Source of the DNA: a virus
Taxonomy: Duplodnaviria > Heunggongvirae > Uroviricota > Caudoviricetes
Reading direction: 5' to 3' (one strand)
Length of the DNA stretch: 54,876 nt
Virus record (IMG/VR): IMGVR_UViG_3300030250_000013
The first letter of the stretch is position 1. Each line of letters begins with the position of its first letter. The notes beneath the pieces were generated by a model. The model was not told the origin of the DNA and made no database searches. It saw only the letters and a list, made by a program, of their open reading frames with translations. The position numbers were made by a program, and so were the translations under genes. This document shows positions 12,350-13,522 of this stretch, in pieces.

Positions 12350-12662
12350 TTACAGTAAGTTGAGCGATAGAGAGATCGATCGTCTTGTCTTGAATATTAT
12401 CTACGGTGTTCATGCTGACGATAAAGATATTCAAGGTTGTTGGTCACGGGGCGGTTTCAAATATACCAGTGACGCTTCTGATGCATGGCAAATTATTGTT
12501 GATAATGGTATTTCGCTGGAATGTATTATAGTGAATAGGCACGAGAAAACATGGCGAGCGCAATTCAAACCTGCATATGTTAAACATCATACGAACCATA
12601 AAAACCCACTCCGTGCCGCAATGATTGTGTTCTTACAGATGCAGGAAAACAACCATGATTAA
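12342..12662 (+). CDS. hypothetical protein (NinX/DUF2591-like?)
   Basis: 106 aa; LSDREIDRLVLNIIYG N-terminus reminiscent of DUF2591; weak. Confidence 0.35.
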   Translation: MTDYSKLSDREIDRLVLNIIYGVHADDKDIQGCWSRGGFKYTSDASDAWQIIVDNGISLECIIVNRHEKTWRAQFKPAYVKHHTNHKNPLRAAMIVFLQMQENNHD

Positions 12663-13008
12663 ACTCTGTTACATTGCCGGGCCTTATCGTGCTGACTGTG
12701 CGCTTAAAACATCCCGTAACGTGTCACGTGCTGAACAGGCGGGTAAACGACTGGCTTTACAACGTCCGGGATGGTTCCCGGTTATTCCTCACAAGAACAC
12801 CGAATTGTGGGACTTTGACGGCGGTTTACGCAATATACAACCTGAATACTACCTGTCAGGCACATTAGAAGTTATGCGCCGCTGTGACGCTGTTCTGGTG
12901 CTTCCTGATTATCGTCGTTCGTCCGGGACTATTGCAGAAATTGCAGAAGCTGAACGTCTGGGTATTCCTGTGTATTACAGCGTGGAGAGTGTACCTGAAC
13001 ATGGCTAA
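12655..13008 (+). CDS. DUF4406 / nucleoside 2-deoxyribosyltransferase-like protein
   Basis: 117 aa from ATG 12655 (ATGATTAA overlap with upstream stop); CYIAGPYRA motif near the N-terminus. Confidence 0.45.
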   Translation: MIKLCYIAGPYRADCALKTSRNVSRAEQAGKRLALQRPGWFPVIPHKNTELWDFDGGLRNIQPEYYLSGTLEVMRRCDAVLVLPDYRRSSGTIAEIAEAERLGIPVYYSVESVPEHG

Positions 13009-13522
13009 AGACAACTGGGAAACACCGTGGGATTTTATTGATAACGTTTCTCGTGAATTCCCACTTGTTCTTGATGTGTGTACCGATGGTTCTAACACTA
13101 AATGTTCGTTATTTATCACTGATAGTCTGAATAAAGACTGGCATTCGATTGTTCAAAATAATGGTGGTGGGTTCATCTGGTGTAACCCACCGTACAGCGA
13201 TCCGTCTCCCTGGGTTAATAAAATAATAACCACTGTTCATCAGGGAACTGGTTCGTTATTACTCGTGAACGCTATGACGTCTGCAGACTGGTTTCACAAA
13301 GCACTGACACATTGTTCGGAACTATGGGTGTTTAAAGGCCGTATAGCGTTTGTAGACCCTGACACCGGGTTACCAGCAGGAGGAAATGACCGTTCACAGG
13401 TGATGTTTGTTTTCGACCCACATCGTATAGGTGAATGTAAAACGAGATCTGTAAAAGTTTCCGACTATCAGAAAATAAAACGACAAGCGTACAGGAGTTA
13501 TTGTTATGTCCACAATCGTTGA
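13001..13522 (+). CDS. dam: DNA N6-adenine methyltransferase (phage Dam family)
   Basis: 173 aa from ATG 13001; N-terminal WETPWDF and catalytic WCNPPYS motif (motif IV, (D/N)PPY). Confidence 0.75.
   Translation: MAKDNWETPWDFIDNVSREFPLVLDVCTDGSNTKCSLFITDSLNKDWHSIVQNNGGGFIWCNPPYSDPSPWVNKIITTVHQGTGSLLLVNAMTSADWFHKALTHCSELWVFKGRIAFVDPDTGLPAGGNDRSQVMFVFDPHRIGECKTRSVKVSDYQKIKRQAYRSYCYVHNR

Follow-up and report, generated by a model that had tools for sequence, protein, structure and literature searches.

The window analysed here is the whole 54,876-nucleotide stretch of IMG/VR record IMGVR_UViG_3300030250_000013, which belongs to a 9NA/Sasha-like Escherichia coli siphophage with a G+C content of 44%. 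Towards the end of a nine-gene replication operon (7084-13739, plus strand), the seventh and eighth genes overlap; they encode a 117-residue nucleoside 2-deoxyribosyltransferase-like (NDT-like) protein and a 173-residue orphan N6-adenine DNA methyltransferase of the Dam family. Across the region, DNA identity is 95-97% with Escherichia phages PDP46 (PQ783785), PJ16 (OQ955832), AVIO78A (MZ726797) and KarinMuster Bas82 (PQ850612), and likewise with two 'Sashavirus' records; with phages of Salmonella and Klebsiella that belong to the 9NA/Sasha group it is 83-90%. A preliminary description of the window had read the tight coupling of these two genes as the mark of a functional pair, with a possible role in methylation-based anti-restriction.

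The NDT-like gene (12655-13008, plus strand) starts with an ATG at 12655, ends with a TAA at 13006-13008 and is preceded by a Shine-Dalgarno-like AGGAAA at 12643-12648. A longer, TTG-initiated form of the open reading frame (ORF) from 12625 is possible, but the homologues begin at the ATG. The protein begins MIKLCYIAGPYRA and contains the motif CYIAGPYRA (12667-12693), on which the preliminary description had based a DUF4406 assignment. Among 52 homologues the consensus reads YIAGPYRA, and Y6 and G9 never vary, so the motif is no chance match. In Pfam profile searches the protein passes the DUF4406 cut-off (PF14359, 30.4 bits against 22) over residues 63-108 only, and reaches 36.4 bits with DUF7768 (PF24963, cut-off 26) over residues 3-108. 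DUF7768 is thus the better fit, as the DUF4406 model covers only the C-terminal half, and the Pfam domains precomputed for the homologues agree with this DUF7768/DUF4406 assignment. The score against the true NDT family (Nuc_deoxyrib_tr, PF05014) is 17.6 bits, under the cut-off of 28.8, and the PHROGs database places the protein in phrog_355, 'nucleoside 2-deoxyribosyltransferase' (4.7e-26).

The AlphaFold2 (AF2) model of the NDT-like protein has a mean predicted local distance difference test score (pLDDT) of 95.7, and structure matching confirms the NDT fold, with NDTs the closest among characterised proteins and 4hx9 among the matches. In the 52-sequence alignment Y6, G9, N22, A26, P45, R76, C77, D78, V80, S89, G91, E95, A99 and P105 are invariant. 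An hhalign profile alignment to human DNPH1, the sequence of which was checked against PDB chains, is weak (E = 0.1) and pairs Y6 with Tyr24, H46 with His56, S89 with the phosphate-binding Ser98 and E95 with the nucleophile Glu104. In the same alignment Thr70 stands opposite DNPH1 Asp80, and nothing corresponds to the Ser128 region. The Glu nucleophile of NDTs thus appears to be kept as Glu95 (predicted nucleophile, codon at 12937-12939), while six residues upstream stands Ser89, not the Asp of NDTs. We take this to be the position of Asp92 in the Lactobacillus leichmannii enzyme, where an Asp-to-Ser change was reportedly used in a designed phosphodeoxyribosyltransferase (4hx9) and switched NDT to nucleotide substrates. 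The protein ends about 12 residues past its last strand and is without the C-terminal segment of NDT and DNPH1, which in NDT completes the active site across the dimer. Within the nucleoside 2-deoxyribosyltransferase/DNPH1 fold it is a minimal member and, judged from the conserved residues, would act as an N-glycosidase or transferase on (deoxy)nucleoside 5'-monophosphates.

The Dam gene (13001-13522, plus strand) runs from an ATG at 13001 to a TGA at 13520-13522. Its NPPY motif, within the WCNPPYS noted in the preliminary description, is encoded at 13184-13195 (residues 62-65), and N62, P63 and P64 are invariant in an alignment with distant members. The family assignment holds firmly: the protein scores 108.7 bits against a cut-off of 28.1 with PF05869, belongs to phrog_111 ('DNA methyltransferase', 9.4e-47) and is labelled an orphan MTase by PADLOC. 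The TIGR01712 phage N-6-adenine-methyltransferase equivalog gives 90.6 bits, under its cut-off of 97.05, and a PDB sequence search with the Dam protein returned nothing relevant. Six close relatives aside, the enzyme is less than 60% identical to all 1,960 other phage records with a PF05869 homologue (tblastn), and the best identity outside those six is 38% among the 40 matches listed.

The two genes overlap by 8 nt, ATGGCTAA at 13001-13008, from the Dam start codon to the NDT-like stop codon, as first described. A Shine-Dalgarno-like GGAGAG for Dam (12984-12989) lies in the 3'-terminal part of the NDT-like ORF, and Sasha has an annotated ribosome-binding site (RBS) at the equivalent place. 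The overlap should give co-transcription and probably coupled translation of the two genes. The same geometry is found along the cluster: the last five genes of the operon overlap at consecutive junctions by 8, 8, 8 and 17 nt (12342/12349, 12655/12662, 13001/13008 and 13506/13522), and all three 8-nt overlaps have the form ATGnnTrA. The NDT-like/Dam overlap is thus a packing style of the operon and does not speak for a dedicated two-gene machine.

The methylase gene occupies an exchangeable cassette. In a blastn comparison of positions 11800-14300 with ten 9NA/Sasha relatives and a more distant relative (L017), homology to the nine relatives with a different methylase stops at 12990-13004 (at 12990 for Sasha and 9NA) and returns at 13500-13506, which are the ends of the methylase ORF; the cassette itself covers 13005-13499, with homology back at the next gene. 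PDP46, which has the same Dam, aligns through the slot, and so does L017 at about 66% identity. Two IMG/VR contigs (L004 and L005) have flanks about 95% identical to the window and carry an unrelated, 265-residue PF01555 methylase in the slot, which in other, elsewhere collinear relatives holds PF01555 enzymes of 443, 459, 480 and 483 residues, and of 393 residues in 9NA and Sasha. A PF05869 Dam occupies the slot only in the window, in five or six near-identical relatives and in L017. The left break point lies just past the methylase RBS, within the NDT-like gene, and the right one at the start of a 77-residue ORF (13506-13739, plus strand; PHROG 25980) that overlaps the Dam stop by 17 nt. The slot is a clean example of recombination break points that coincide with gene boundaries, set between two conserved flanks: the NDT-like 3' end, which bears the methylase RBS, and the 77-residue ORF.

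In the 9NA/Sasha relatives examined (L001-L010) the 77-residue ORF comes after the slot regardless of which methylase fills it, and in L017 (4344-5084) it is fused in frame to Dam to give a protein of 246 residues. Its homologues (62-77 residues) are confined to the 9NA/Sasha clade. It has no Pfam match, and its AF2 model (pLDDT 87) has no fold match in the PDB.

The association of the two kinds of gene was surveyed at 133 loci with NDT-like homologues, collected from IMG/VR, GTDB genomes and GenBank phages. Methylases were detected with locally iterated hidden Markov models (HMMs) run on all ORFs, with Pfam spot checks; the iterated Dam HMM recruited 77-residue ORFs through the fusion in L017, and these were removed by a length filter. 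No methylase was found within 4 kb at 91 loci (68%). Elsewhere the nearest methylase was directly downstream on the same strand at 18 loci (the 9NA/Sasha clade, with L017, accounts for 12), directly upstream at one, within 1 kb at 10 and at 1-4 kb at 13. When the loci were clustered at 90% identity into 80 lineages, 62 (78%) had no methylase within 4 kb, and in the others it was directly downstream (Dam, PF01555 or C5) in six, within 1 kb in five and at 1-4 kb in seven. No NDT-methylase fusion was present among 208 homologues or in long ORFs with an NDT-like domain; one of these long ORFs bears an HNH domain, and the others resemble ORFs extended upstream.

The reciprocal survey gave a similar picture, as 72 of 80 distant Dam loci had no NDT-like gene within 3 kb. 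The remaining eight, in three architectures, have a gene for a 98-residue DUF4406 protein 0-700 bp downstream of Dam, in one case with a NinX-like gene nearby, and among phages they match best Enterobacter phages such as CobraSix and the E. coli phage HK639. Contigs related to temperate phages of these two hosts place a distant PF05869 Dam (about 33% identity) ahead of the DUF4406 gene. In L167 (2950-4675) the two overlap by 4 nt and a NinX-like ORF follows; in L161 (2962-4021) a 72-residue ORF stands between them; and in L104 (1603-4512) a 636-residue C5-methylase-like ORF, possibly a fusion, spans the Dam match, and an extra 164-residue ORF precedes the DUF4406 gene. In phage Chi (NC_021315, 1566-2923; L216) a gene for a 153-residue DUF7768 homologue closes an operon that points towards the lysis genes, an arrangement like that of the window, and its upstream neighbour, with a 4-nt overlap, encodes no methylase but a 299-residue protein with a PAPS-reductase domain. 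In gd01 and FSL SP-088, two Chi-like phages, a Dam-domain match is found under a gene annotated as PAPS reductase, which in gd01 lies about 5 kb from the NDT-like gene. Taken together, NDT-like and methylase genes form a recurrent, facultative neighbourhood in the accessory end of replication modules and are no obligate pair.

These observations bear directly on the functional pair proposed in the preliminary description. The overlap on which that proposal was built is real, but the step from overlap to function finds no support, given that such overlaps are generic in this operon, that the methylase is swappable, that no fusions are seen and that the genes mostly occur apart. A weaker statement survives: in the 9NA/Sasha clade the NDT-like gene always precedes some DNA methylase, and this arrangement recurs in about five other lineages.

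The explanation that we consider probable is that the two are independently acting accessory genes of an overlapping replication operon, the methylase sitting in an exchangeable slot. The NDT-like enzyme would cleave or exchange the base of a (deoxy)nucleoside 5'-monophosphate, and so serve salvage or sanitation of the nucleotide pool during replication. Dam would act as an orphan adenine methylase on phage DNA. Recombination at the gene boundaries would refill the slot with methylases of different families and specificities, a turnover that presumably tracks the restriction systems of the hosts.

A rather unlikely alternative is a facultative partnership, in which an NDT-like enzyme is useful specifically to phages that encode a DNA-modifying enzyme, whatever its family, either by clearing methylated deoxynucleoside monophosphates (dNMPs) or by countering host systems that sense phage methylases (e.g. 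retron Ec86). The first option has a cellular parallel, as DNPH1 removes hydroxymethyl-dUMP from the nucleotide pool, and Ser89 stands at the position of the phosphate-binding Ser98 of that enzyme. Several results weigh against independent action, and most of them speak for such a partnership. Throughout the 9NA/Sasha clade a methylase follows the NDT-like gene, in 12 of 12 loci, despite replacement of one family by another. Outside the clade, a methylase lies directly downstream on the same strand at six loci (five distinct) of the roughly 30 that have one within 4 kb, against about 2.3 expected at random, and these directly downstream enzymes in other lineages are of the PF01555 or C5 class. 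Counted by lineage, the methylase is at the +1 position in 6 of 18, against 1.4-2.3 expected (post hoc binomial P = 0.002-0.02), under a random-placement null of 8-13 neighbouring gene positions that does not correct for kinship. The order Dam then DUF4406, in part with NinX, recurs in unrelated temperate phages of Enterobacter and E. coli, and the upstream neighbour in Chi carries a PAPS-reductase domain, a class that includes DNA-modification enzymes such as DndC. Two further points concern the predicted activity itself: the DNPH1 alignment is statistically weak, even if it agrees with the fold match, and a literature search on DUF4406, DUF7768, DUF1937, PF14359 and PF24963 returned incidental mentions of DUF4406 only and no functional study.

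The partnership has to contend with the 68% of loci and 78% of lineages in which an NDT-like gene has no methylase within 4 kb, and with the lack of fusions among the 208 homologues and the long ORFs. The enrichment is modest and post hoc, and neither kinship nor the common accessory location of both genes was corrected for. The defence-related option of the partnership draws on the report that phage methylases trigger retrons with NDT effectors: phage Dcm triggers retron Ec86, whose effector has an NDT-like domain, and earlier work, as cited in that preprint, names phage Dam as a trigger (bioRxiv 10.1101/2023.08.16.553469). By analogy, a phage NDT-like protein beside a methylase could in principle interfere with methylase-sensing retrons, which is speculative. 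In a PADLOC scan no defence-protein or retron-effector model matched the NDT-like protein at E <= 0.01, which counts against a direct link to retrons.

In its most general form this idea would make DUF7768 and DUF4406 proteins accessory partners of phage DNA-modifying enzymes at large (Dam, N6/N4, C5 and PAPS-reductase-like), which we consider distinctly improbable. Such partners might hydrolyse modified dNMPs, as a phage analogue of DNPH1 sanitation, or might blunt NDT-effector defences that detect methylases. If true, it would explain why in the 9NA/Sasha clade the gene after the NDT-like one remains a methylase through changes of family, and the association would provide the first functional handle on two widespread phage domains of unknown function.

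The published behaviour of Bas82 counts against the partnership and is of no help to the anti-restriction role suggested in the preliminary description. This phage, which has the same NDT-like and Dam genes as the window, is reported to be markedly sensitive to the restriction-modification (RM) systems assayed, and according to the BASEL authors it has no recognisable extra protective or modification locus (PMC11990801). Its sensitivity argues against broad protection by the two genes and remains compatible with protection from a cognate enzyme.

The composition of the window is of interest in the same context. CTAG occurs 15 times, against 53 expected from a Markov model or 208 from composition, and AGCT and GGCC are also depleted. 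Of the 6-bp palindromes, 14 do not occur at all, among them AAGCTT, AGTACT, TCTAGA, CCATGG, GGTACC, GCATGC and CTCGAG. This avoidance of CTAG and palindromes points to site avoidance as a main anti-restriction strategy of the phage. CCGG is over-represented (207 against 148 expected), and GATC shows neither avoidance nor enrichment (202 occurrences, 208 expected from composition).

It is unlikely that the NDT-like protein is a classical salvage enzyme, that is, a true nucleoside 2-deoxyribosyltransferase that swaps bases and rebalances precursors for a genome of 44% G+C, with no relation to the methylase. The score under the PF05014 cut-off speaks against this, as does the length of 117 residues, which leaves out the C-terminal region completing the NDT active site. 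The presence of Ser89 at what is presumably the Asp92 position of NDT points the same way. In its favour are the fold, the NDT name carried by PHROG 355 and by many GenBank records, and the base composition of the window; reasoning of this kind was previously applied to a homologue in a Roseobacter phage (PMC11981692).

A two-enzyme hypermodification pathway, in which the NDT-like protein and Dam would cooperate to put a non-canonical base into phage DNA, has adjacency and the general precedent of clustered phage DNA-modification genes on its side and can be rejected as highly improbable, since methylases of other families freely take the slot beside an NDT-like gene that is retained, Bas82 is RM-sensitive without a recognisable modification locus (PMC11990801), and the strong avoidance of 6-bp palindromes suggests loss of sites and not blanket modification.

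The replication operon also contains genes for a Gp2.5-like single-stranded DNA-binding/annealing protein (the name is taken from the PDP46 record), a DNA polymerase (9917-11773, plus strand), a 178-residue hypothetical protein (11813-12349, plus strand; PHROG 19205) and a NinX-family protein of 106 residues (12342-12662, plus strand; PF10765 match), followed by the NDT-like, methylase and 77-residue genes. The 178-residue ORF runs 8 nt into the NinX gene, and the NinX ORF runs equally far into the NDT-like gene. The best sigma-70-like promoter match, a candidate by consensus alone, lies 5' of the operon at 7023-7051 (plus strand). In the 80-nt gap between a gene for a 273-residue protein and the DNA polymerase gene there is a perfect, GC-rich 7-bp hairpin (9877-9896, ATGGGGC...GCCCCAT), which is terminator-like by score on both strands; in Sasha a terminator is annotated at the corresponding position. 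The middle of the NinX gene is mosaic: homology to PDP46, 9NA and others is lost from about 12355-12506 to 12603 (blastn gaps at 12355/12380/12506-12603), and both ends are kept.

Downstream, the operon faces a convergent lysis cassette on the minus strand (13804-15139). The 3' end of the 77-residue ORF overlaps the 3' end of an 82-residue minus-strand ORF (13719-13967) by 21 nt (13719-13739), so the convergent operons abut with no intergenic terminator. This 82-residue ORF encodes an o-spanin-like lipoprotein and lies embedded within the ORF for the i-spanin (13804-14202). The window (14430-14819, minus strand) and 9NA/Sasha have an ORF for an endolysin of about 129 residues, and in PDP46 a 186-residue 'glycosyl hydrolase' stands there (L001, 5163-5723). 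This difference in lysis genes among near-identical phages looks like another exchangeable slot, adjoining that of the methylase.

Among characterised enzymes, DNPH1/Rcl and the bacterial CMP N-glycosidases MilB and BcmB have a fold in common with the NDT-like protein, and in the weak alignment described above the Tyr, the His, the phosphate-binding Ser and the nucleophilic Glu of DNPH1/Rcl pair with like residues. The sequence match to these enzymes is not significant, and the NDT-like protein is 30-50 residues shorter than they are, without the C-terminal part that includes the second phosphate-binding Ser. Searched against the PDB as a profile, the NDT-like family matched 1t1j alone (E = 0.15). 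That entry, a 'hypothetical protein' and structural genomics target (APC5043) which we take to be a Pseudomonas DUF1937 protein, is 16% identical to the NDT-like protein.

The Dam enzymes of Stx phages and T1-like phages have PF05869, the NPPY motif and orphan status in common with the window Dam, at about 31-32% identity. We take those enzymes to be GATC-specific; given the sub-cut-off TIGR01712 score and the low identity to known phage Dams, the same specificity cannot be assumed for the window enzyme.

The closest comparisons are with phages of the same group. Salmonella phages 9NA (gp62-gp61-gp60) and Sasha (gp59-gp58-gp57) have the operon, the NDT-like gene (about 90% amino acid identity in the group) and the 77-residue ORF in common with the window. 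They differ in the methylase, a 393-residue PF01555 (COG0863) enzyme in place of the PF05869 Dam, with DNA homology lost exactly across the methylase ORF, and in the overlap of this gene with the NDT-like gene, which is 11 nt against 8 in the window. In the PDP46 and Bas82 records the 117-residue gene, the 8-nt overlap, the 173-residue methylase gene and the 77-residue ORF follow each other as in the window, and PDP46, PJ16, AVIO78A and Bas82 differ from it only in small respects, in the NinX and lysis genes. The gene pair was thus already known: PDP46 and PJ16 annotate it as a 2'-deoxynucleoside 5'-phosphate N-hydrolase and a DNA N-6-adenine methyltransferase, and the present finding confirms this sister-phage annotation.

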